Virus record (IMG/VR): IMGVR_UViG_3300028601_000032
Span: 7,238-71,237 of that record
Strand: one strand, 5' to 3'
DNA: 64,000 nt
From: a virus
Part shown: in pieces, positions 5,407 to 59,145 of the stretch
Numbering within the stretch: the first letter of the stretch is position 1
Layout of the letters: each line of letters starts with the position of its first letter
The notes under the pieces: model-generated
Databases searched by the model: none
Told to the model about the DNA's origin: nothing
The model's input: the letters and a program-made list of their open reading frames with translations, nothing else
Position numbers and translations under genes: made by a program

Positions 5407-5742
5407 ATGTTACCTCTCATTTTAGGTTTAATGTGTGGTGCAAAACCCAAAGAAATCTCACGTTTAATGGACGAAACAACGAAACGACACCAGGAAGCAG
5501 CCGAAGAATTACGCAAAAAGGAAGAAGCAAAGAAAGCACAGATTGAATATGAACGTGAAAAGTTCGAGGCTGTTATTGATGAGGTTTACGAGGAACTTGA
5601 AAAGTATGAATGTTTAGTTGGATCTGAAAACATGCAGGAACGGCTGTTGGATGAGCTTGATAATGTGTGTTATAAGATGAAGATAGACAGGGTAGAATTC
5701 TTTGAGATGTTTTTGAAAGGATTGAGAGAAAATTACGATTGA
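5407..5742 (+). CDS. Hypothetical coiled-coil protein (start corrected to ATG 5407)
   Basis: GAGGTGA RBS just upstream of the in-frame ATG at 5407. Confidence 0.6.
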   Translation: MLPLILGLMCGAKPKEISRLMDETTKRHQEAAEELRKKEEAKKAQIEYEREKFEAVIDEVYEELEKYECLVGSENMQERLLDELDNVCYKMKIDRVEFFEMFLKGLRENYD

Positions 5743-5973
5743 AGGAGGAATAAAAACAATGGTACAGAAAATATTGAACTTGACACAACATGCAGCGACC
5801 CCCGAACAGATCGTAGTAAGGAAAGTACAGGTATTCAGGCACGCCGGATTTGTAGAGGTGTGAAAATGACCTCTAAAAACTTTATAGAATGGGTACTAAC
5901 AATACTGATAGTTTTCACACTAACTCTGACAATATACATATTAATGGAAATATATATATGGGGGGTATAATTA

Positions 5974-6273
5974 ATGTCATCTTACCGCCCATCGTCAGCT
6001 ATAAAATGGCCTGATAGACTCGGGCCAATCAAAATACCAATCTCGGGAAATGATATCATAGAATACAAAACCCCCAACAACGTCGGACAACTTCAAGCAG
6101 CTTCATTTTCAGGGAAAACAGGCATTGTAATCAGAGGAAAAAAAGAGAAAGCAGACGAAATAATAATAAGTCCAACTGATGAAGTTTGGACTGTTACATT
6201 TACCCCTCGCGGCGTGATGCCGTCTGTGGGGGTTTATAATGAGGTTATCACAATTATTATAAAACCATTGTAA
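5974..6273 (+). CDS. Hypothetical protein
   Basis: ORF track only. Confidence 0.5.
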   Translation: MSSYRPSSAIKWPDRLGPIKIPISGNDIIEYKTPNNVGQLQAASFSGKTGIVIRGKKEKADEIIISPTDEVWTVTFTPRGVMPSVGVYNEVITIIIKPL

Positions 6274-6275
6274 TA

Positions 6276-6307
6276 ATGCCCTAAAAGTATATATACTTTT
6301 AGGGCAT
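6276..6307. promoter_or_regulatory. Perfect 32-bp palindrome centred on a TATA box
   Basis: atgccctaaaagtatatatacttttagggcat equals its own reverse complement; about 50 bp upstream of the 6361 gene. Confidence 0.8.
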
Positions 6308-6360
6308 ATAGTATATTGTAGTAAGGGCATAAGGCCCTAATAAGAAGGAGGAAAAGACAA

Positions 6361-6942
6361 ATGATAAACCTTACAAAACTAGGAAAAGTAACAAAAACGT
6401 GGTGCAAAGACGGAAAACACAGAATGTATGTCAATGATCTATGTACATTAATTGGAATAGACCCAAAACATTTAAAAAGCGGAGAAGAGGGGAGAATTGC
6501 AAGAGAACTCGTGGCTGCCAAACTCTGGTACGATGTTGTAGCCGATGAATGGGTGAGCCAGGGGATAGGGCAGGCTAGAAAAGAACAACTCGTGGCAGAA
6601 ATACTGAAACAAACTGGAGCTGAAGAAGTTGATGAAGAAGTTGAACATGAAACAGTTGAAGAACTAGAAACCATAGAAGAAACTGAAGCTCCTGAATTCA
6701 CCGCAACAAGACCAAAAGATTCACCAATTGCAATAATCAACAGAATGCCAGAAAATAATGAAGACCTTGAAGCACTTTTCAAAGCTGAGAAAATAACAGA
6801 ATTCAAATCAAAAGTACTTTACCTGAATGGTGCGCTCCAAGTAGGGCGGATACATAATATACACTTCGACAAAGCAAAATATAAAGAAATATTCATGAAC
6901 TATCTTCTCGAAGAAAAGGAAAACAGTAATAAGAGGGCTTGA
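6361..6942 (+). CDS. Hypothetical protein with acidic linker
   Basis: GGAGG RBS; EEVDEEVEHETVEELE linker. Confidence 0.7.
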   Translation: MINLTKLGKVTKTWCKDGKHRMYVNDLCTLIGIDPKHLKSGEEGRIARELVAAKLWYDVVADEWVSQGIGQARKEQLVAEILKQTGAEEVDEEVEHETVEELETIEETEAPEFTATRPKDSPIAIINRMPENNEDLEALFKAEKITEFKSKVLYLNGALQVGRIHNIHFDKAKYKEIFMNYLLEEKENSNKRA

Positions 6943-22162: not shown

Positions 22163-22408
22163 TTAGTGATTATTAACCCACCTATCAATAGAACAAATGG
22201 CAGCCCCCGCAACATTTAACCCGCTGATGCTGCATACTCCAATAACATCCCAGAAATCTGTATCCTTCTGAAAATGCCCGCATGTCCGGCAGACCTGCAT
22301 TTCAAATGATTGAGATTTTTTTAATTGTTCGTGGTCATGTTTGATTTCTGCAAGAGTGGGAAAACAGTTCATGCACATATCGACCCTCTTAAGAGTATTA
22401 TACTTCAT
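22163..22408 (-). CDS. Cys-rich hypothetical protein
   Basis: CMNC, CRTCGH and two further Cys; overlaps the head protein gene. Confidence 0.55.
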   Translation of the reverse strand: MKYNTLKRVDMCMNCFPTLAEIKHDHEQLKKSQSFEMQVCRTCGHFQKDTDFWDVIGVCSISGLNVAGAAICSIDRWVNNH

Positions 22409-23213
22409 TGATTTTCATTTTCCATGCCTGTTCCTGTCCATCCCAGAACAAACCGGCTTCGTCCTTCAATCTCTGCCAGTATTTCGCATCATAGTCCTTC
22501 TCGGAATACTCCTGAGCGCGATGTCTGCAATGGGGTTCCCGGAGCACCTTCTCGGCGTAGTCGCTCTGAAGAGTTCCCCAGATGAATATCTGCCCCACAA
22601 GAGCTACATGGCTTGGGCGCGCTATCTCGTCTACAGGTCCCACAAAGACCCATCGTTCTTGCTGCAAGACAAGTGCCTGTTTTCGTCCTTCTTCATAAGC
22701 CCTGTGTGCTGCGATATCAGCGAGAAGAGAGGAATATACTAGGGTACTCGCTGAAAACGGCTTAGAGATGATCTTAGAGCGTTCCGAAATCGTGAGGTCT
22801 TTGTCAACATAGAGTTCTTTCTTTTTTTTGCCCACATTGTCAATTGTGATATTTTCTTTTCCTGAGAAAACATCTGAAACATATTTCTGGATTTCATCTT
22901 GAGTGCTGCCCGCTTCGGACATCTCTTTTACTTTGTTCAATATCTGATCTTGTGCGGAGGTATTGAATTTCTTGAGGGACCCCAAAAAGAGAGCTAACAG
23001 GATAGCGAGCTCGGCTTTTTCTTCGGTTGTTAGGCCGTCCTCTTCAGGATCTTCGGCTGAAATGAGAGGACGGGTAGATTTATGTTTTTGCCCTGCGCCC
23101 CGTCCTGCAAGATAGTTTTTTGCAAGTTCTTCGGTGAGGGCTTCGGCTTGGGTAGATTCTATTTTTTTAAAAGCTTTCTTAAGTGACTTCTTAAAGTCTT
23201 TGAGGTTAAACAT
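22398..23213 (-). CDS. Minor head morphogenesis protein (SPP1 gp7/Mu F-like)
   Basis: VDEIARPSH..G..REPHCRH motif; directly after portal. Confidence 0.75.
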   Translation of the reverse strand: MFNLKDFKKSLKKAFKKIESTQAEALTEELAKNYLAGRGAGQKHKSTRPLISAEDPEEDGLTTEEKAELAILLALFLGSLKKFNTSAQDQILNKVKEMSEAGSTQDEIQKYVSDVFSGKENITIDNVGKKKKELYVDKDLTISERSKIISKPFSASTLVYSSLLADIAAHRAYEEGRKQALVLQQERWVFVGPVDEIARPSHVALVGQIFIWGTLQSDYAEKVLREPHCRHRAQEYSEKDYDAKYWQRLKDEAGLFWDGQEQAWKMKINEV

Positions 23214-23215
23214 TG

Positions 23216-25000
23216 TTATTCCTCAAAAACGGTTTTCATTCCTTCTTCATATGCCTCTTGCAGTTTCTTAACTAATTCCGTTTCATCAAAATTCGAGGGA
23301 GCCGTAGGATCGGCAGAAATTAGCCCTCCATCCTGCATGGCTCCAAATAAACAAGCCTTCAAAATCGCATTAACCTCCTGGACCTGCTCCGGCCAGAGTG
23401 GATTGATCTGGGCCTCGTAGTTATCCAATCCCAACAGCCCGAACCCATACTCCTCTCCGAGTGCCTGAGAATCCATCTGGGAGGCTCCTACGCCCTTGAC
23501 TATAGCGAGCGTTTCAGCGTAAGTTTTCGCGACCTGAGCTTCAGTCAAAATGTCTTTTGTATCCGGTGTATCGAGGGTGAAGTGGGCCTTAATGTCCTCG
23601 AAAGAATAAGCTCCCTCTTCACCGTTCCATGTTTTTCCTGAAAACATCAATTTGATAAGCCGGTCTGCCGCTCCTTCATATTCAGTCCTCTCCCCTGTGT
23701 GAACTGAGTTGAAAATCTGTAAAATATTTCGAGAGCTGGCCAATTCCGTACCTGTCGCATCAATAAGAGATATTGGAAAACCGAATGCTTGACCGATCTC
23801 TTCATTAAGTTGATCGATGAGCATTTTTATGAAGTTCTCCGAAACCGATTTCGCACTTTCGACGGGCTCTAATGAGACATCAGGAGGAGTTGTAAGGACG
23901 CCTCCCTCTTTCATACTGCTAAGAACATTGTTTGAAAGTGTCTTCATTGAGTCCACCCACGAGTTGTAGGCTGCGATTTCGGCGGAATAATTAAAAGAGT
24001 TCTCGGCGGGTTTCCGGGGAGTTGACGTGACGAAAAACGGATTCCCGGACATGTCCTTTCCGAGCTGAACCATACCGTTCTTCGCGTGGATGAATGGGCT
24101 CAGGATAGAATAGATCAAGTTGGGAGAATTTGTAAGAAGTAATCTTTTCAACCAGATAGCCAGGATAACAGAATCTATCGGCGCATGATCCGTTTTTGTC
24201 TCACACTCGTCATAATAAACATTGTGAGGCTGTCTAACTTCTGTATTATGCATTGCCACAATGCGCTCGGCTGCTGCTATTCTCAGATTGTTGATATCTG
24301 AAATGCTATAATCAGTTTTGTATTTTTCAAAGAGAGCTTTAACCGCGTCACTGTTTCCTGTTTCCCGCTTGTCGATAAAAGTTGCATAGTGATCGAGGGT
24401 CCCGAAGGGAATAAACCATGAATCAACCTCTTCGGCGGTTCCATAAGACGAAAATGATTTATTAACGCGGGCTTTCTGATGATAAAAAATTATAGATGAG
24501 TCCCAGGGATCAGTATAAGTTCTGACTGTTGCCGGGGTGATCCTTTCGAGGTGGTGGATATTTCCGTCGGTATCCCGGTCAATTCTTCGGAATGAGTGCC
24601 CGACGAGGATGCCGTAATCTTTGTAGTCTTCCCGGAATACCTGCATTAGTTTGATGGATTCGACCCAATCTGTTATCTCTTCTATAGCCTGATAGTAGAG
24701 TTTGTTGTCCTTTGTTTGGATTGTAAACCCCTGAAGCAATGTATTTTTTAGATATGGATAGATTGTGCCGGATAGGAGCGGATCAGCTTCAAATGCTTCC
24801 TGCCGGAGTTTAGGGGTTGCATGTGGGATTTTGTTTTTTGTTTCCTGAATCCATTTTAGGAGGTTTTCGTGGGAGAGATAATGGTTTTCTAGGGGTTCTG
24901 ATGAGGACGCGCCTACGGTGGATGAGGATTTATCTGTTTGTGGTTGGGGGGATTGTTTGGAGGTTGTGGAAAAAAGAGAGGATATTTTAGGGAGTTGCAT
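23216..25000 (-). CDS. Portal protein
   Basis: 594 aa helical protein upstream of the gp7-like gene, with portal-like EIGQAFGFPISL segment. Confidence 0.7.
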   Translation of the reverse strand: MQLPKISSLFSTTSKQSPQPQTDKSSSTVGASSSEPLENHYLSHENLLKWIQETKNKIPHATPKLRQEAFEADPLLSGTIYPYLKNTLLQGFTIQTKDNKLYYQAIEEITDWVESIKLMQVFREDYKDYGILVGHSFRRIDRDTDGNIHHLERITPATVRTYTDPWDSSIIFYHQKARVNKSFSSYGTAEEVDSWFIPFGTLDHYATFIDKRETGNSDAVKALFEKYKTDYSISDINNLRIAAAERIVAMHNTEVRQPHNVYYDECETKTDHAPIDSVILAIWLKRLLLTNSPNLIYSILSPFIHAKNGMVQLGKDMSGNPFFVTSTPRKPAENSFNYSAEIAAYNSWVDSMKTLSNNVLSSMKEGGVLTTPPDVSLEPVESAKSVSENFIKMLIDQLNEEIGQAFGFPISLIDATGTELASSRNILQIFNSVHTGERTEYEGAADRLIKLMFSGKTWNGEEGAYSFEDIKAHFTLDTPDTKDILTEAQVAKTYAETLAIVKGVGASQMDSQALGEEYGFGLLGLDNYEAQINPLWPEQVQEVNAILKACLFGAMQDGGLISADPTAPSNFDETELVKKLQEAYEEGMKTVFEE

Positions 25001-25045: not shown

Positions 25046-25747
25046 TTACCAATCGCTCGGTTTCTCATTACGATATTCCGGCATCATAACACAGTCAATA
25101 TAATAACCTCCTTTATGTACCATGCCCTGACTGAATCGACTTGTGAGTCGTACCTTATCATATCCTCCCTCTACTGCTGCGTATTTGTCATAGTAAGACA
25201 GATACCTGATATTGTTTGTGATGAGGTATGCCCAGATGTCCCTCCAATCAAGATCACGAAGCGGAAAGGCCACACGTCTACTACCATCCATTTGTATGAG
25301 AGGTCCCTTAACTCGTCTTGTCCTACGTGTACTTTCCTGTCCCCTGATGCCAAGTAATTCAACCGTGCAATTATGTTTTTTCATGACTCTAAAAAGGTTC
25401 CCAAAAAATCTTTTTGAGTTTGGGGTTTTGTGCCCACAACTATATAGGATTTTTGCTCCTGCTTCCCTGCCGATCTTGACAATATCATCAGTCATTGCCT
25501 TTGGCATCTTGATCTGTTGAGATTCATAATCATATCCGGAGTCGCTGTAATAGACAGGGATCTGATTGTTCTGCCGCATGACCATATGGAGCAGAACAAG
25601 GCTGTCCTTGCCTCCGCTGTAGAGGACGACAGGCCATTCTGCCATAAGGATTTGTTTGATATTGTTTTCAGCCTCTTTGATCCGTGCAGCATATTCTGGC
25701 AATTCCGCCCATAATTCAAATAGTTCACGCCATTCGTCCGGCATCAT
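25046..25747 (-). CDS. cysH: CysH/PAPS-reductase-like protein of type IV-B Cas locus
   Basis: PP-loop YSGGKDS, GIRGQESTRR, PLRDLDWRDIWAY; lacks the C-terminal ECGLH tail. Confidence 0.85.
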   Translation of the reverse strand: MMPDEWRELFELWAELPEYAARIKEAENNIKQILMAEWPVVLYSGGKDSLVLLHMVMRQNNQIPVYYSDSGYDYESQQIKMPKAMTDDIVKIGREAGAKILYSCGHKTPNSKRFFGNLFRVMKKHNCTVELLGIRGQESTRRTRRVKGPLIQMDGSRRVAFPLRDLDWRDIWAYLITNNIRYLSYYDKYAAVEGGYDKVRLTSRFSQGMVHKGGYYIDCVMMPEYRNEKPSDW

Positions 25748-25756
25748 AGGACAACC

Positions 25757-26479
25757 TCAAAAATGTGAATAGAATATAGACCCCGGAGCTGCACACATGG
25801 TAATGTTTTTCTTATCCCAATACGGAGCTTTCCAGGCGAGCCTTTGAGCCACCGAAGGGATACCATACAGGTCCTTAAAATCTTTTGCTGGAAAGGGCCT
25901 CATACACTTCCCATCTTTCACAAAAGAATAGTCCTCTTCTGTTTCTTCAATTGATATTTTTCTGACAATCCCATAACCAATATCCGTTTTTTTTCCAAGT
26001 GCGGTGAGGTCTTCAAGGATTGAGCTGCATTCTTTTATATTTCCGTTATAATAAAATGTAACTGTTCTTGTAGGGATTACAGGAAATTTCATCATATAGT
26101 TCTTGAAAAACCCTTGCCCTAAACGGATTCTTTTGATTTTTGATTTCACATGGTCCAGGTGTTCCTCGTCAAATCTTTTGTAAACTGACTCTGTTTTCAC
26201 GACATCCGTGTCAAATTGAGAGACTGAAGAGTGATAAACTCCTTTTGTCTGTTTTAGAGGCAACTTTAGAATGTTATGGACAGGGAGCGGGTTTTTTGCA
26301 GGGAGGTTGTAATATTCATCTCTGAGAAGTTTTCTCATAAGTAGAGCCATTAGAACGCTGTCCCCGTGAATATACGGGTTTGCCAGGAGAAGAGGAGATC
26401 CTAGTTTGATTTCCACTTTGAAAGGTTGAAAGTTTGAAGGGGGGTTATATCCCTTCAACTTTCTATAGATAGACTGCAT
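25757..26479 (-). CDS. csf3: Csf3 (type IV Cas5-like RAMP)
   Basis: IHGDSVL, LPL..YHSS, KRFD, LGKKTDIGYG glycine loop, RPFP, APYW. Confidence 0.88.
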   Translation of the reverse strand: MQSIYRKLKGYNPPSNFQPFKVEIKLGSPLLLANPYIHGDSVLMALLMRKLLRDEYYNLPAKNPLPVHNILKLPLKQTKGVYHSSVSQFDTDVVKTESVYKRFDEEHLDHVKSKIKRIRLGQGFFKNYMMKFPVIPTRTVTFYYNGNIKECSSILEDLTALGKKTDIGYGIVRKISIEETEEDYSFVKDGKCMRPFPAKDFKDLYGIPSVAQRLAWKAPYWDKKNITMCAAPGSIFYSHF

Positions 26480-27297
26480 TATCTTGTCTCCAGCTCGCTT
26501 AGAGTATTGCAGATCTGCTCTTTGTTGTCTTCAATGAATTTCAGATACGCTGAATCATCATCAAGTTCATAATTCAGCTTCACAGTTCCGTATCCTACCC
26601 CAGACTTTCCCCCGATCCACGGGTGTTCTCTCCAAAGATTCAGGGCGCGAGCCAGGACAGCTTTCTCTACATCATTTGGATTGTCCAGGGCAAAGGAATG
26701 GACAAAGATGGTCCCCGGATTGATTACCTCAAAGCTCATAAGCATCTGGTGTGCGGCTTCTCCTTCTTGCCTTGCTTCTTTGATGTCGTCAAGCCGTGTC
26801 ATGAAATCGAATGATACAAGCTCATATATGCTTGTTGTTGGCTGTACTGGAAGGTCATCCGGCAGGAACTCCTTAAGCTCTGAACAGATAGGCTGAGCAA
26901 TTGCACATTTCAGTTTTCCCTCAAACATCTGGTTTCCGAGAGCTGTGCCTAGGACAGCGAGAGGGGGTAATTCGGCCCGAAGTCTTTTTTTCATGTCGAT
27001 ATCGATGAGCCCGGAGTCCTTGCTGTCAACAGCTTCAAGAATTCCACCTGTAAACAACATATGATATATTTTCATGTTTGCAAGGGTGTACCCGACTCTT
27101 TCAAGTAGATCGTCCCAGATCATCCGGCGTAATACCCCTCTTATGGCATTGCCAGAGATCACCGGAATTTCAATGACAGAATTGTCCACAATGTAAGCCT
27201 GTCTTCTGATAAGGCTCTGATTACCTGCTTTCTCGTCTCCTCCGTGATGAATAGGCGACTGTGCGGTAATGAATCCGGGTACTCGTAATACTGTCAT
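26479..27297 (-). CDS. csf2: Csf2 (type IV Cas7-like backbone)
   Basis: SPIHHG, IPVISGNAIRGVLRR, LFTGG, LGTALGNQMFEGKL, PICSE, IGGKSGVGYG. Confidence 0.93.
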   Translation of the reverse strand: MTVLRVPGFITAQSPIHHGGDEKAGNQSLIRRQAYIVDNSVIEIPVISGNAIRGVLRRMIWDDLLERVGYTLANMKIYHMLFTGGILEAVDSKDSGLIDIDMKKRLRAELPPLAVLGTALGNQMFEGKLKCAIAQPICSELKEFLPDDLPVQPTTSIYELVSFDFMTRLDDIKEARQEGEAAHQMLMSFEVINPGTIFVHSFALDNPNDVEKAVLARALNLWREHPWIGGKSGVGYGTVKLNYELDDDSAYLKFIEDNKEQICNTLSELETR

Positions 27298-27674
27298 TAG
27301 AATCCCTCCAAACTTGTATTACCTTTCATTTTCTTAGCTGTTTCAAACTGTTCTTTAGCTTCCTTCTGAGTCAAGAGGGCAACAAGCACTGATTCTTTCC
27401 CTATCATTTTCCTTACCCTTTCCCTTTCGTCTTCAAGCATTTCAATGTCAATAGTATCCATAGTTGCCGATGGCAGCCCTAATCCCTTACAAACCTTCTC
27501 AAGCATCTGAGGCACATTCTCCATTCCGGCCGCCGCCCTGAGTCTTTCTGAGAAAACATCAACTGAAGATCTTTTCATAGATGTCATATCTTTCCAGGAA
27601 ACTCTTTTCCAGATTCCAGAAAGTGTTTTTGCCAACAGCCCTCTTAATTCTTTGTCTGTGATTTCCATTCCCAT
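27297..27674 (-). CDS. Cas11-like small subunit of type IV-B
   Basis: 125-aa all-helical protein between csf1 and csf2, translationally coupled. Confidence 0.7.
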   Translation of the reverse strand: MGMEITDKELRGLLAKTLSGIWKRVSWKDMTSMKRSSVDVFSERLRAAAGMENVPQMLEKVCKGLGLPSATMDTIDIEMLEDERERVRKMIGKESVLVALLTQKEAKEQFETAKKMKGNTSLEGF

Positions 27675-27678
27675 TTTA

Positions 27679-28290
27679 TCAGCTCACGAATATAGCCAGA
27701 TCCCAGAGAGGGTTCCCGGCCAATAGTTTAACTTTTTCAATAAGTTCTATGTCGTACCCAAGCTTTTCATAGCTTTTCGCTTTGAAATTACCGGTGCTAA
27801 GTTCTGTTTTTGTGATTTTCTTTTCAAGGATGTCGGTGATAATATCACAATATTCTTTCAGTTTTTCAGTGTTCACCTCGATAAGATCATAATCAAGTCC
27901 AATCGTATAGTCAGTTTTTGACTCTTGCACTCGATTGATAAGATTAAGCCATCCCTGCTTTTTCCAGGTCTGGGTAAGGTATATCACGAAAGGGGGTTCA
28001 GGTGGGTTCAGTAAGAGTTCCTTCGCTCCGTCCCGCTTAACTTCGGTGAATGTTTCGTGGGTAACTGCCCATGCCTTCTTTCTATACATCTGCTCATTGT
28101 AGACGTGCCAGCATTCTGGGCAAATACAAGAGCCTCCTTGTATTAGGTCGTAAGCTGTGAATGTGTCTTTCAGTTCGGCTTTGTGTCCGGCTGTAGTCCC
28201 AAGCCCACATAAAATACAAGAACCTGTAAGCGTTCCTTGTTCTGGTTCGATGTTTCGAGCAGAGCATAAGAGTTTTGAAAGTGTTGTCAT
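27679..28290 (-). CDS. csf1: Csf1 (type IV Cas8-like large subunit)
   Basis: CILCG...ICPEC zinc site, FTAYD, LLNPPEPPFVIY..KKQGW. Confidence 0.85.
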   Translation of the reverse strand: MTTLSKLLCSARNIEPEQGTLTGSCILCGLGTTAGHKAELKDTFTAYDLIQGGSCICPECWHVYNEQMYRKKAWAVTHETFTEVKRDGAKELLLNPPEPPFVIYLTQTWKKQGWLNLINRVQESKTDYTIGLDYDLIEVNTEKLKEYCDIITDILEKKITKTELSTGNFKAKSYEKLGYDIELIEKVKLLAGNPLWDLAIFVS

Positions 28291-28637
28291 GATTCGACCT
28301 CATGCAAAATAATTAAAACTGTATCACCATCCTTGATTTTTTTAAAAAATGGAGTCTTAACCGGAAGCTTACCTGCTTCCAGATAAGTCCTAGGGAGTGA
28401 GGGAAAACACCTTCTTGTATCTTTTCTAATATCATCTTCAAAAACTGAGAAAGAGCCGTCACATATGAGAGTAGGCAATGTTTTCAAAACTATGACTTCT
28501 ATTCTAAGCCCTGGGGCTAGTCTGTTGACAATACTTCTTGCATAGAGTTTTCCTGAACTTCGCTCTGTGTCCGTAATGTCAGAAGATGCTTTCACGATTG
28601 TGTGTTTGATATTTGAAAAAGTGATTTCTGAGGTCAT
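28287..28637 (-). CDS. Hypothetical protein coupled to csf1 (possible AbrB-like C-terminus)
   Basis: Stop overlaps the csf1 start (ATGA); ends KIKDGDTVLIILH. Confidence 0.55.
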   Translation of the reverse strand: MTSEITFSNIKHTIVKASSDITDTERSSGKLYARSIVNRLAPGLRIEVIVLKTLPTLICDGSFSVFEDDIRKDTRRCFPSLPRTYLEAGKLPVKTPFFKKIKDGDTVLIILHEVES

Positions 28638-28694
28638 TTTTCAAACTCACATCCGCATCCCCCTTTCACGCATTTTGCTTTCATTTTTTCCACC

Positions 28695-29081
28695 TCAGCC
28701 CAGGTTTCCACTGAGATAAGCAAGTTCTTCAGTTTCATAGCATTTTGCGTTTGCTCCGTAAGTCGTGGTCTTCCCCTCAACTGAATCGTAGATCAGGAAA
28801 ACCTCTTCATCGAGAGCACTTTCAATGAGGAAACTTTCAGCATCGCTGTCGTCCTCGCCGAAGTTCACGCGAACATAGGTATTTCCTTCATATTTGAGGT
28901 CATAATTGATCCAAATCCAAAAGTTTGAATCTTCTTGTGGTTTCACTGCTTCAACGAAAGGAGTTTTTCTGACTTTTCCGTCCTGAATTTCGTAGTACCC
29001 GAAATCCGCATCTTCAACGTAGTCGTACATGCTTCGGTAGAGTCTTACATTTCGTCCATCTATCGTGATTTCGTTTGTCAT
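28695..29081 (-). CDS. Hypothetical acidic protein, first gene after the internal promoter
   Basis: AGGTGA RBS; TATA upstream. Confidence 0.7.
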   Translation of the reverse strand: MTNEITIDGRNVRLYRSMYDYVEDADFGYYEIQDGKVRKTPFVEAVKPQEDSNFWIWINYDLKYEGNTYVRVNFGEDDSDAESFLIESALDEEVFLIYDSVEGKTTTYGANAKCYETEELAYLSGNLG

Positions 29082-29109
29082 CTTATTTCACCTGTATATA
29101 TTACTATGC

Positions 29110-29134
29110 GTACAAAGTATATAAATGTTTGTAC
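29110..29134 (-). promoter_or_regulatory. Internal promoter of the type IV-B operon with flanking inverted repeat
   Basis: Minus strand gtacaaa-caTTTATATAc-tttgtac. Confidence 0.65.
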
Positions 29135-29153
29135 TCACCAACACCGAAAAAAA

Positions 29154-30479
29154 TTAGATTCTCATTCCTCCCGAACTCGAAGCCCCGACAAACGAAGTTT
29201 CATATACCTGTTGAGAAAGCAGCTTAATAAGCTCATTATAAGCACCGCTCGAAGCATCTACAGCATCATCATGTACGCCCTTCTGAGGAAACGGACACAA
29301 GAAATTAATAAGAGTAGAATTCCAAGGAGCCCGCTTAAGAAATACCAATCCGTTTGATACTGCCCCTGAAAAGCCTCTTGCCCGTATTTCCTTAGAACCT
29401 GAAGACTTTATACCTTGAAAGCCGGTCCCTTGGAAAAGTGTTTTTGCAAAATTAAACACATCGTCCTTCCCGGAAGCTCCGCCTTCCTGTTCCATTCGTT
29501 GAAGTACCTGTGAGCCGTCCATCTTGATAGTTGCCTTAATTACTTCGTCCCTCTGTGCAGGATTTAACCGGACCAGAACCATATCAGCAATATAGAAGAG
29601 TCCGTTAAGTTCTCCCATTAGAACCCCGGCTGTATAGTCTGGATCTTGATAACCATGAGAAGGTTCCGAGGCTGCCATATCCCAGAATCTAACCCACTTT
29701 GTTATTCCTCTTGGGATTTCATCAACAAATTTAAACCACTCTCTTTTAAACATGTTGCCATTTGCAATAATATCCCAATCACCGTATTTTAGTTGGGCTT
29801 TTGTGATTGGATCAAGAGCGTTAAGGGATTCCTCATAAGCGGCCTGATCTATGAAAGGGTTGTCTTCCAGGCTGGCAGGAATAAAGAATCTATCGTTTGC
29901 TTTCATTTCTTCAGGTGATGGAGTGATAAAGCGAGCTTTCACCCACTCATGTCCCACGCCTCCAGGGTTTGAAGCCGCTCTTATCCTGAGAGGGATAACT
30001 GAGTTTTCCAACCTACGAAGCCTGGAAAAAAGATAAGAGTACTGAGTCTCAGAAAATTGAGTAAGTTCATCAAAGGCGATAAACTGGAACTCCGCACCTT
30101 GGTATCTGTACTTGTCATTTTCATGTTCAAGATATCCGAATGTTAGTGTAGCACCTGAAGGAAATTTCCAAGTCTTTGTTTGTTCATTCCATTTTGCATC
30201 TGAATTTCTAAGCCATTCATTGGCCCTATCCATTATAGCGCCAGGGAGGGACAGATCTGCATAAGAACGCCTTAAAATGAGAGCTGAATATTTTGGTTCC
30301 GAAACATACTGAAGGGCGGCCATTAAGATGGTGCTGGACTTGCCTCCTCCTGCTTGCCCCCCGAATAAGCCTTCCTTTTCGGTTCGCTGTAAAAAAAGAG
30401 ATTGTTTATAAGTAGGATCTTGAGGGAGATATTTATTATCTAAAACAGTTCCTATGAAAGTATTGTCATCAAGAACCAT
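29154..30479 (-). CDS. terL: Terminase large subunit
   Basis: Walker A GGQAGGGKS, Walker B FDELTQF, nuclease motifs RFWDMA, DYTAG, HDDAVDA. Confidence 0.95.
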   Translation of the reverse strand: MVLDDNTFIGTVLDNKYLPQDPTYKQSLFLQRTEKEGLFGGQAGGGKSSTILMAALQYVSEPKYSALILRRSYADLSLPGAIMDRANEWLRNSDAKWNEQTKTWKFPSGATLTFGYLEHENDKYRYQGAEFQFIAFDELTQFSETQYSYLFSRLRRLENSVIPLRIRAASNPGGVGHEWVKARFITPSPEEMKANDRFFIPASLEDNPFIDQAAYEESLNALDPITKAQLKYGDWDIIANGNMFKREWFKFVDEIPRGITKWVRFWDMAASEPSHGYQDPDYTAGVLMGELNGLFYIADMVLVRLNPAQRDEVIKATIKMDGSQVLQRMEQEGGASGKDDVFNFAKTLFQGTGFQGIKSSGSKEIRARGFSGAVSNGLVFLKRAPWNSTLINFLCPFPQKGVHDDAVDASSGAYNELIKLLSQQVYETSFVGASSSGGMRI

Positions 30480-31163: not shown

Positions 31164-31500
31164 TTACACCCTATTATCTTGTAGGTGATTGATTTTTTCA
31201 ATTTGTGTCACCTTTGAGAGTCTAACTGATGGATCTGTTTCTAATGTGGTATTACATTGAGCGAGAACGTCCTCTGTGACCTCTATGATAATTGCTGTGA
31301 TATCTGCGTCTGATAGTGTACCTGTGTATACAAGAGTTTCCAACATTGCTACCCTAGCCTCATCATATGTATTTTTCGTAATTATAATCCCGCGCTCTTT
31401 GCATTCGGCTTTGAATTTTCCTGTACCGAATCCCGCGCTCTTTGCATTCGGCTTTGAAAATTCCTGTACCATACTCGCGTGATATTGTCCATTCTACCAT
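31164..31500 (-). CDS. Small gene with an internal 43-bp duplication (HicB-like N-terminus in the pre-duplication frame)
   Basis: The ATG at 31500 frame joins the 31164 frame only if one repeat copy is removed; the alternative ATG at 31472 gives a 102-aa product. Confidence 0.5.
31386..31470. repeat. Tandem duplication, period 43 bp, 2 mismatches
   Basis: aatcccgcgctctttgcattcggctttgaa(tt/aa)ttcctgtacc at 31386 and 31429. Confidence 0.95.
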
Positions 31501-57911: not shown

Positions 57912-59145
57912 GTGACTACTCCCCTCATTTCAATGAGGGGCATCTTCCGATTTTACGGTCAGATTGTAATCCCAATCTGAGAATATTAATAGAAGCATTA
58001 AGATCGCGGTCAATAGACAGACCACAGAAATGACAATTATGAGTTCTTTCTGATAGGTCTTTTTCTACCAACATCCCACAATTTGAACACATCTTTGAAG
58101 TATTCTTAGGGTTAACAAGTATTACTTTTCTACCAGCATTTTCAGCTTTGTAGGAAGTATAAGTTACAAGTTTACTCCAAGCGGCATCAAGGATGTGCTT
58201 TGCCAGATTGTGATTTTTTGTCATGTTCTTAATGTTAAGATCTTCAAAACAGATTATACCGTAATTATCAATGAGACTTTTACTGATTTTTTGGGTAAAG
58301 TCTTCTCTCTTGTTAGCAATCCTTTCATAGACTCTACACAACGTTTTAAGGCATTTTTTTCTTTCAGGAGTACCTTTTTCGGCTTTAGATAGTTTCCTAT
58401 TAGCTCTTGCGAGTGCCTTTTCTTCTTGAATATAGAATCTAGGATTGGGAACATAAGTACCATTTGATAATGTAGCAAAAGTGAGGATTCCAACATCAAT
58501 GCCTACTGACTTATCAGATGGTTCAAGTGGTTGATAAGTTTCAGTATCAGTAAGTATTGATACAAACCATTTACCAGTTGAAGTTCTTCTTATGGTCAAA
58601 CGTTTAATATTACCTTCAAGTGGTCTATGCAATTTGATTTTTATATCCCCTATTTTTGATAGAGTTAACATGTTACCGTTTAAGGTAAATCCAGATTGCA
58701 GGTAAGTAATACTATCATACCAACCTTTACCTTTAAATCTAGGATAACCTGCCTTTTCTCCATTTTTCACTCTACGGAAAAAGGCTTGAAAGGCAAGGTC
58801 TACACGCATAGTTACATCTTGAAGAGTATGAGAATGAACGTTTTTCAGTTCGGGTTTATCTTTCTTCCAGATAGGTATCATTTTCTTAGAATCATAATAA
58901 CTGATTCTTTTCTGTTCTAATTCCCAAGCGTTCTTTCTTAATGCCAGAGTTTCGTTATAAACCCATCTACAAAGTTCCAAAGTAGAATTAAGCTTTGTAA
59001 CTTGTGATTTTGTTGGATAGATTCTATAACGATTTACTTTAGGCATAATACTATACTATGTAATTTTACCTAAATAAAGGTTGTTATGCAGAGGTTGACG
59101 GCTGTATCCCGCCATTAAAATGACGGGGATTAGCCTTAGACGCTC
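57912..59145 (-). mobile_element. Non-autonomous IS200/IS605-family element (tnpB only)
   Basis: Right end gcccctcattgaaatgaggggagtagTCAC ending at 57912; left-end hairpin 59106-59130 (left boundary approximate); visibly more AT-rich than flanks. Confidence 0.8.
57925..59046 (-). CDS. tnpB: RNA-guided endonuclease TnpB
   Basis: YRIYPT HTH start, RuvC GIDVG, FEDL, DRDLNA, Zn finger CSNC..CHFC; D-E-D intact. Confidence 0.96.
   Translation of the reverse strand: MPKVNRYRIYPTKSQVTKLNSTLELCRWVYNETLALRKNAWELEQKRISYYDSKKMIPIWKKDKPELKNVHSHTLQDVTMRVDLAFQAFFRRVKNGEKAGYPRFKGKGWYDSITYLQSGFTLNGNMLTLSKIGDIKIKLHRPLEGNIKRLTIRRTSTGKWFVSILTDTETYQPLEPSDKSVGIDVGILTFATLSNGTYVPNPRFYIQEEKALARANRKLSKAEKGTPERKKCLKTLCRVYERIANKREDFTQKISKSLIDNYGIICFEDLNIKNMTKNHNLAKHILDAAWSKLVTYTSYKAENAGRKVILVNPKNTSKMCSNCGMLVEKDLSERTHNCHFCGLSIDRDLNASINILRLGLQSDRKIGRCPSLK

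Follow-up and report, generated by a model that had tools for sequence, protein, structure and literature searches.

A type IV-B Cas module without a CRISPR array beside the terminase gene of a tailed virus with a Methanosarcina-like host

The virus record IMGVR_UViG_3300028601_000032 of IMG/VR, 71,237 bp long, carries beside its large terminase gene (terL) the genes of a type IV-B effector complex, a subtype of the CRISPR-Cas systems. The stretch analyzed, called the window below, is 64,000 nt long and comprises bases 7238-71237 of that record; positions refer to the window unless stated otherwise. The locus is almost certainly a complete effector module that lacks an array and is expressed as a unit, made up of a palindrome-TATA promoter, two leader genes (orfA and orfB) and the genes csf1, cas11, csf2, csf3 and a cysH-like gene, in the genome of a tailed virus whose host is Methanosarcina-like. 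As to its role, we tentatively put forward counter-defense by capture of the host's CRISPR RNAs (crRNAs). The explanation as a whole, identity and mechanism together, has in our estimate a probability of about 0.4.

Gene content and subtype

An initial annotation, made from the letters of the window, had listed five abutting genes with Csf1, Cas11-like, Csf2, Csf3 and CysH-like motifs. All five are present at 25046-28290 on the minus strand (Table 1), tightly packed, with neighbors overlapping by 1-4 nt or separated by 4-9 nt. Searches with Csf1, Csf2, Csf3 and PAPS_reduct profiles gave matches to all the corresponding proteins in PADLOC or Pfam; the NCBIfam type IV models match Csf1, Csf2 and Csf3 below their strict curated cut-offs. 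In Csf1, four cysteines (C25, C28, C57 and C60) in a zinc-ribbon pattern are invariant across 11 relatives. Among PDB sequences, Csf2 matches Cas7c (11fs; 1.9e-16) and the type IV-B Csf2 (7JHY; 1e-14), and Csf3 matches the type IV-A Csf3 (8rc3_F; 3e-4).

In the CysH-like protein the PP-loop motif SGGKDS is invariant across eight relatives, and no cysteine is conserved in the C-terminal part of the same set. Its sequence marks the protein as having an ATP pyrophosphatase fold of the PP-loop kind that lacks the catalytic cysteine found in true 3'-phosphoadenosine 5'-phosphosulfate (PAPS) reductases. This fits the description of CasCysH, in which the nucleotide-binding loop is kept and the catalytic cysteine is lost (PMC8175902). 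The cysH of methanogen viruses has been treated as an auxiliary gene of sulfur assimilation (PMC9723712, published in 2022). That reading would not apply to the gene at 25046-25747, because its product lacks the catalytic cysteine and is a member of a Cas module, and the locus serves as a warning against reading a viral "cysH" in methanogen viruses as a gene of sulfur metabolism.

The initial annotation had found no array, cas6, cas1 or DinG gene in the window, and this holds for the whole record: there is no CRISPR array or two-repeat mini-array, and no cas6, cas1 or dinG/csf4 (no match to TIGR03117 or PF01881), anywhere in the 71,237 bp, including the 7.2 kb outside the window. Rfam gives neither a CRISPR-DR nor any other family at gathering score across the record, and only two chance-level matches near the cassette. 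Mini-arrays are likewise absent from the 18 related loci scanned, of which L009 has only low-complexity coding repeats, and from either full virus genome; a complete relative of 73,429 bp (with 116-bp terminal repeats) has no array and no cas6. A 43-bp unit does occur in two tandem copies, 95% identical, at 31386-31470, within an open reading frame (ORF) of 102 aa (31164-31472). It has no spacer and is therefore not CRISPR-like.

The gene content is that of type IV-B: a Csf2 backbone with Csf3 and Csf1, a separate cas11-like gene and a linked cysH-like gene, with no array, cas6, adaptation genes or DinG. The marks of type IV-A, namely a DinG helicase, Cas6/Csf5 and a CRISPR array, are absent from the virus record. 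So is the mark of type IV-C, a large subunit that is Cas10-like and has an HD domain: Pfam, NCBIfam and PADLOC show no Cas10 or HD match, and the large-subunit position is taken by a protein of 203 aa that matches Csf1 profiles only. The genes present place the locus in type IV-B, as opposed to IV-A or IV-C, and the array-less IV-B layout named in the initial annotation stands. In a quick tree of Csf2, the sequences from Methanosarcina viruses form one clade (support 100), nested in a wider clade (support 95) whose members are mostly archaeal and largely carried by viruses or plasmids. This wider clade groups with the IV-B reference from the Mycobacterium sp. JS623 plasmid against an outgroup of 320-aa Csf2 proteins (support 98), in a tree that includes no IV-C reference. 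A profile of the Csf2 clade scores Cas7c of type IV-C (1.8e-36) above the IV-B reference Csf2, 7JHY (2.8e-26).

The five genes had been said to separate terL from the portal gene. The position of the block is as described, but the unit has seven genes, since orfA and orfB belong to it as well, and the portal is a probable one. The portal label comes from size, gene order and weak matches. Searches of 50,697 phage records, of PHROGs and, by profile, of PDB gave no match to this protein, and only one of its four homologues matches Portal_Mu.

Table 1. Features of the cassette and its flanks (positions in the window) and the host arrays discussed in the text (positions in genome G124)
Feature	Position	Strand	Basis
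terL, upstream flank	29154-30479	-	Terminase_6N 3e-14, Terminase_6C 5.4e-15
Promoter with operator-like palindrome	29110-29134	-	Sequence reading
orfA, 128 aa, first gene of the unit	28695-29081	-	Conservation ahead of the cassette
orfB, 116 aa	28287-28637	-	Stop overlaps csf1 start by 4 nt
csf1, type IV large subunit, 203 aa	27679-28290	-	PADLOC Csf1_0_IV 1.4e-35; NCBIfam TIGR03114 1.3e-11 (under cut-off)
cas11-like, small subunit, 125 aa	27297-27674	-	PADLOC Cas11_0_IV 1e-19
csf2 (Cas7 backbone), 272 aa	26479-27297	-	PADLOC Csf2_0_IV 3.8e-67; Pfam RAMPs 7.7e-10; TIGR03115 9e-16
csf3 (Cas5), 240 aa	25757-26479	-	PADLOC Csf3_0_IV 2.2e-57; TIGR03116 4.6e-16
cysH-like gene (CasCysH), 233 aa	25046-25747	-	Pfam PAPS_reduct 6.7e-15
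Probable portal, 594 aa, downstream flank	23216-25000	-	Weak Portal_Mu (E 0.0033, under cut-off)
Mu-F-like gene, after the portal	22398-23213	-	Weak Phage_Mu_F (E 0.0032, under cut-off)
Host array region L046	G124:C1:895000-912000		
Host array region L047	G124:C1:1614000-1630000		

The promoter was recognized by a palindrome with arms GTACAAA and TTTGTAC, which enclose a TTTATATA TATA box. It sits just past a run of seven T residues (29147-29153) that comes after the terL stop. The palindrome occurs once in the window, where none is expected by chance. It is nearly invariant ahead of the cassette in three related loci (L002, L004 and L005) despite differing DNA further upstream, and its core is exact in a fourth (L003). 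In the 73-kb relative the palindrome has two copies, one ahead of orfA and one ahead of a helix-turn-helix gene inserted upstream of csf1. In two relatives (L004:6460-7008 and L006:6517-7014), a gene between orfB and csf1 encodes a protein of 165-182 aa that weakly matches HTH_17 and is a candidate for regulating the cassette; in the 73-kb virus the second palindrome copy stands before this gene.

Both leader genes are conserved. The orfA gene is kept ahead of the cassette in L002, L004, L005, L011 and L025, with a ratio of nonsynonymous to synonymous substitution rates (dN/dS) of about 0.09-0.11, and has no match in Pfam, NCBIfam, PADLOC or PHROG. Its AlphaFold model is poor (predicted local distance difference test, pLDDT, 48.7) and falls below use for structure search; an ESM Atlas feature search gave no match. 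For orfB there are 59 homologous clusters, of about 112-121 aa each and all unnamed, and dN/dS is 0.10-0.23. The orfB model is confident (pLDDT 86; predicted template-modeling score, pTM, 0.80), and no convincing match to its fold was found with Foldseek against PDB (best E 0.25), VIA-align (48,161 chains, best Z 4.6), ESM Atlas (template-modeling score no higher than 0.54, against unnamed clusters) or BFVD (best E 0.08). Prediction of a complex of orfB with Csf1 scored 0.00, which counts neither for nor against contact. L027 has the pair orfA and orfB next to a portal-sized gene and a terL that contains an intein, with no cas genes adjacent, so the two are a separable leader module and not proven Csf subunits. 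The terL intein of L027 (L027:10177-12423) is one of two inteins seen in related viruses; the other lies in a ribonucleotide reductase large subunit (L013:2659-5265) and has a LAGLIDADG domain.

The virus, its host and the spread of the cassette

The record is rated 100% complete by CheckV and has no terminal repeats. The initial annotation had described an archaeal tailed virus with Methanosarcina as the likely host, and both parts agree with what was found. Matches to an HK97-type capsid, a tape-measure protein and a tail-tube protein identify a tailed virus. All named cellular relatives of its MCM helicase come from Methanosarcinaceae (40-46% identity). Three of its proteins have a disaggregatase-related domain, which among 14 control genomes gives matches only in Methanosarcina acetivorans. 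The host is, more exactly, Methanosarcina-like, as the spacer matches described next indicate.

In a DNA search of 177 Methanosarcinaceae genomes, short matches of 97-100% identity to the virus were found in one genome of 4.14 Mb (G124). The matched regions hold two CRISPR arrays, which have 60 and 73 repeats of 37 nt. One array adjoins type I-D genes (Csc1, Cas3', Cas4 and Cas1d) and the other type III-B genes (Cmr1 and a Cmr4/6-like protein). The repeats of both end in ATTGAAAC. Of the 131 spacers, 24 match the virus, half of them perfectly; the 73-kb relative is matched by a single spacer. For the first, I-D-linked array, 10 of the 12 protospacers have GTG as the 5' flank, and for the second, III-B-linked array, 11 of the 12 have TTA; because the flanks are so consistent, the matches represent real acquisitions. 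None of the 24 protospacers falls in the cassette, where about 1.4 would be expected by length, a difference that is not significant. The same genome encodes nine disaggregatase-domain proteins. Its I-D cas3' (L046:1589-4856) looks split: profile positions 1-281 fall in one ORF and 318-357 in a later one, and between them are two ORFs (207 and 164 aa) on the opposite strand. The split may reflect an insertion and leave I-D interference disabled in G124.

Close relatives of the whole unit are present in IMG/VR, NCBI and Logan contigs. Among them Cas11 and Csf2 are 85-98% identical (Cas11 91-98% in the close Methanosarcina-virus relatives compared), whereas the products of the neighboring portal and Mu-F genes are just 57-61% identical. 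All five cas genes have dN/dS of 0.02-0.10 (0.02-0.075 for cas11 and 0.03-0.05 for csf2), and the synonymous divergence (dS) ranges from 0.5 to saturated and is uneven along the cassette. In the complete 73-kb virus the cassette lies between tail-fiber genes and is 63-95% identical to the one here. Few other genes are shared, and most of them are weakly alike: a small ORF is 74% identical, two tail proteins reach 41-52% and the others 22-35%. No other protein-coding block common to these two very different viruses comes close to the cassette in conservation. From the identities, the placement, the low dN/dS and the uneven dS it follows that the unit is old, mobile among viruses of the host group, recombining and under strong purifying selection. 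Recent transfer as the sole cause of the conservation was considered and rejected, given the extent of synonymous divergence. The cassette is viral rather than cellular in its carriage: among the 177 Methanosarcinaceae genomes there is no integrated copy, and Csf2 is found in one of them only, at 34% identity. GenBank phage records contain one distant Csf2 match only.

The position of the cassette next to packaging genes recurs in related viruses. It stands beside terL and/or the portal gene with three terminase families: Terminase_6 in this virus, L005 and L006; Terminase_3 in L002 and L007 (in L002 the terminase matches chiefly this family, unlike the Terminase_6 enzyme here); and Lambda GpA in L024, a Nitratiruptor contig whose portal is of the lambda type. 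In L002 and L024 it occupies the terL-portal junction itself. In close relatives, however, it lies between tail-fiber genes (L004, L011, L025 and L026) or ahead of protease and capsid genes (L015, a contig of 41,308 bp whose Csf2 is about 42% identical to the one here). The preference for the terL-portal region is real enough for a census but not obligatory.

The csf3-cysH gap is variable and is a hot spot for extra genes among related cassettes. In L002, L011 and L026 it holds two small genes, one of which encodes a protein of 134-138 aa that is weakly SpoU-like (E 8e-4 and 0.0099); the Pfam matches are below cut-off and a profile of the protein has no match in PDB. In L025 the gap holds an IS200-type transposase. 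An IbrA-like PAPS-reductase/DUF3440 gene lies in the gap of L018, in that of L019 together with a weakly ParB-like (ParB_N) partner, and just past cysH in L022. Plasmids show similar neighbors: a second PAPS-reductase/DUF3440 gene in or beside the cassette of a Natrinema plasmid, IbrA/IbrB-like genes adjoining the cassette in haloarchaeal plasmids, and a ParB_N protein near the cassette of an Actinarchaeum plasmid. Type IV-B is usually described without cas6. A bona fide cas6 (Cas_Cas6_C 2.2e-18) nevertheless lies in the csf3-cysH gap of an uncultured archaeon contig (L020:2681-3475), and another adjoins csf2 on a 103-kb plasmid of Thermococcus nautili 33-3 (L032:6842-7585), whose Csf2 belongs to the same clade and which has cysH. 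The cysH-like gene itself is found in all related cassettes seen complete except L009, which has no CysH match.

About 21 kb of cargo (1051-22398) lies between the portal and Mu-F genes on one side and a scaffold-like gene and the capsid gene on the other, the capsid gene being beyond the window (record positions 5691-6659). The cargo includes an N6/N4 DNA methylase, a disaggregatase-domain protein of 1148 aa and a TraG/VirB4-like ATPase of 893 aa. A TnpB/IS605 OrfB-type gene with OrfB_IS605, Cas12f1-like TNB and HTH_OrfB_IS605 domains (57925-59046, minus strand) stands amid the tail-module genes.

Possible functions of the complex

In the mechanism proposed here, Csf2 and Cas11 would build a nuclease-free filament on a small RNA, and Csf3 and Csf1 would cap it. 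The bound RNA would be the host's own crRNA, which the Cas5-type subunit could recognize by the 8-nt ATTGAAAC tag that ends the repeats of both host arrays. Capture would withdraw crRNAs from the I-D and III-B effectors of the host, or would mask the matching sites, and in either case the module would act as counter-defense. With ATP, the CysH-like enzyme would adenylylate the bound nucleic acid or modify it in another way. The identity of the bound RNA, the anti-CRISPR effect and the substrate of the enzyme are the parts that we infer. Three observations argue for crRNA capture: the complex has no nuclease, the virus is heavily targeted by two systems that share a crRNA tag, and sister cassettes contain cas6. 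The presence of cas6 in cassettes of the same clade (L020 and the T. nautili plasmid) points to repeat-derived RNA as a likely substrate. The reference IV-B complex binds RNAs of about 55-60 nt, is without nuclease, and has been proposed to serve as an RNA sponge (PMC7937560).

Several points weigh against crRNA capture and keep the proposal tentative. Even with an array provided, the RNA bound by that reference complex was mostly of non-CRISPR origin (PMC7937560). The virus under study has no cas6 in its full record, and sequence in it resembling the host repeat matches at best at 22-23 of 37 positions, the same as in shuffled controls. To our knowledge, no experiment has shown crRNA binding by any IV-B complex. 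Heavy targeting by the host is to be expected for any virus and is by itself no sign of a counter-measure. A sponge leaves the universally linked CysH-like enzyme unexplained, and the accessory genes of related cassettes (SpoU-like, IbrA-like/DUF3440 and ParB-like) suggest modification over simple sequestration. Hijacking of crRNAs, a non-CRISPR guide and CysH-mediated modification are all hypotheses already in the literature, and the data presented here do not decide among them.

Modification of nucleic acid is the first alternative to consider, although we regard it as somewhat unlikely. The Csf filament would present regularly spaced, flipped-out bases of an RNA, or of an RNA-DNA hybrid, for the CysH-like enzyme to adenylylate or otherwise modify, with methyltransferase-like or IbrA/IbrB-like enzymes assisting in relatives. 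Such changes would serve to shield viral nucleic acid or to affect host RNA at a late stage of infection. The near-universal presence of the CysH-like protein in complete cassettes (L009 excepted), with its ATP-binding PP-loop intact, speaks for such a machine. The extra genes in the csf3-cysH hot spot also fit: the weak SpoU methylase matches of L002, L011 and L026, the second PAPS-reductase/DUF3440 gene of L018, L019, L022 and the Natrinema plasmid, and the ParB_N protein of L019 and the Actinarchaeum plasmid. A place beside terL and the portal gene fits late expression, at the time of DNA packaging. However, the SpoU-like matches lie below the Pfam cut-off and lack PDB support, the extra enzymes are absent from this virus, no substrate is known, and the published complex carries RNA and not DNA.

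A second alternative, distinctly less probable, is that the complex is a weapon against competing mobile elements. By analogy with transcriptional repression by type IV-A, it would attach to co-infecting viruses or plasmids by means of borrowed host crRNAs or some other guide, and silence them without cleavage. Type IV systems are believed to take part in mobile-element conflicts (PMC7038947; PMC13676074), the cassette passes among unrelated viruses of one host group, and some relatives have cas6. Against this, the virus record holds no array, no DinG-like helicase and no adaptation genes, and since host spacers heavily target this very virus, borrowed guides would mostly point home.

A packaging-linked or structural role, in which the terL-portal junction was chosen since assembly requires the complex or its RNA, or since the virion delivers it, is very unlikely. 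Adjacency to terL and/or the portal gene across three terminase families would be in line with such a role. But cassettes of close relatives lie between tail-fiber genes or before protease and capsid genes, the unit has its own promoter, IV-B systems are common on plasmids that package nothing, and the junction may just tolerate insertions.

A more elaborate use of host crRNAs, which we consider just as improbable, would have them guide the nuclease-free Csf complex, via the ATTGAAAC-derived tag, to those places in the viral genome or transcripts that the I-D and III-B systems would attack, where the CysH-like enzyme would modify the sites or the complex would occupy them. If true, the virus would turn the immune memory of its host into a map for self-protection, and expression beside the packaging genes would let genomes be marked or shielded ahead of packaging. 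Finally, that the cassette is a decaying or selfish passenger without function for the virus, a notion to which the lack of any demonstrated function for IV-B lends itself, is most improbable on the selection data, as the five genes are intact, evolve at dN/dS of 0.02-0.10 across relatives with near-saturated synonymous sites, and form the best-conserved block common to otherwise very different viruses.

Relation to known type IV systems

Type IV-B is the one widespread CRISPR-Cas subtype without a demonstrated function, and its role and full architecture were called unclear in a paper of September 2026 (PMC13676074). The present locus leaves that picture unchanged. What it offers is an unusually well-defined natural setting, with an identified host, two typed host CRISPR systems, 24 matching spacers with clear flanking motifs, and a common crRNA tag. 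It also comes with natural variants among related viruses, in which the cassette is intact, relocated, expanded by extra enzymes or cas6, or not seen beside the leader genes (L027). Because the host is identified and heavily targets the virus through CRISPR, the function of the cassette can be tested, and assays of crRNA capture and of interference are feasible since genetic tools exist for Methanosarcina species.

The reference IV-B system of the Mycobacterium sp. JS623 plasmid (PDB 7JHY; PMC7937560) resembles the locus in its set of csf1, cas11, csf2, csf3 and a cysH-like gene and in having no array, cas6, nuclease or adaptation genes. The Csf2 proteins match, and group in the tree with the homologous JS623 plasmid Csf2, as described above, but are only about 29% identical, and the carrier is an archaeal virus here and a bacterial megaplasmid there. 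In the JS623 locus examined, a gene of the PAPS-reductase family lies upstream on the opposite strand, whereas here cysH follows csf3 on the same strand. The two leader genes and the conserved operator-promoter are specific to the group of this virus. With type IV-C1 of Thermococcus and Pyrococcus (PDB 11fs; PMC13676074) the likeness is in the backbone, Cas7c being the protein that the Csf2-clade profile scores highest of the two references; unlike IV-C1, the large subunit here is the short Csf1, and a CysH-like protein is present.

The occurrence of IV-B in an archaeal virus, implied to be novel in the initial annotation, was published in 2023. Fuxiviridae of Bathyarchaeia (PMC10541130; PMC10848311) are archaeal viruses with csf1, cas11, csf2, csf3 and a CysH-like protein of the Cas-associated branch. 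They differ in having a two-repeat mini-array and a host spacer that targets their cas7; neither this virus nor the relatives examined have a mini-array, and the cassette here is matched by none of the 24 host spacers. A close counterpart is the Methanoperedens virus Mp_virus_41kb_42_49_complete, which carries csf1, cas11, csf2, csf3 and a non-canonical cysH with no array nearby (bioRxiv 10.1101/2023.08.02.551345). It too is an archaeal, Methanosarcinales-related virus with the five genes and without an array, and its authors also proposed an anti-defense reading; it has another host and a smaller genome. The literature searched contains no paper that ties IV-B to Methanosarcina viruses. An array-less IV-B module in an archaeal virus is thus already known, and what the present virus adds is a defined host and a series of natural variants.

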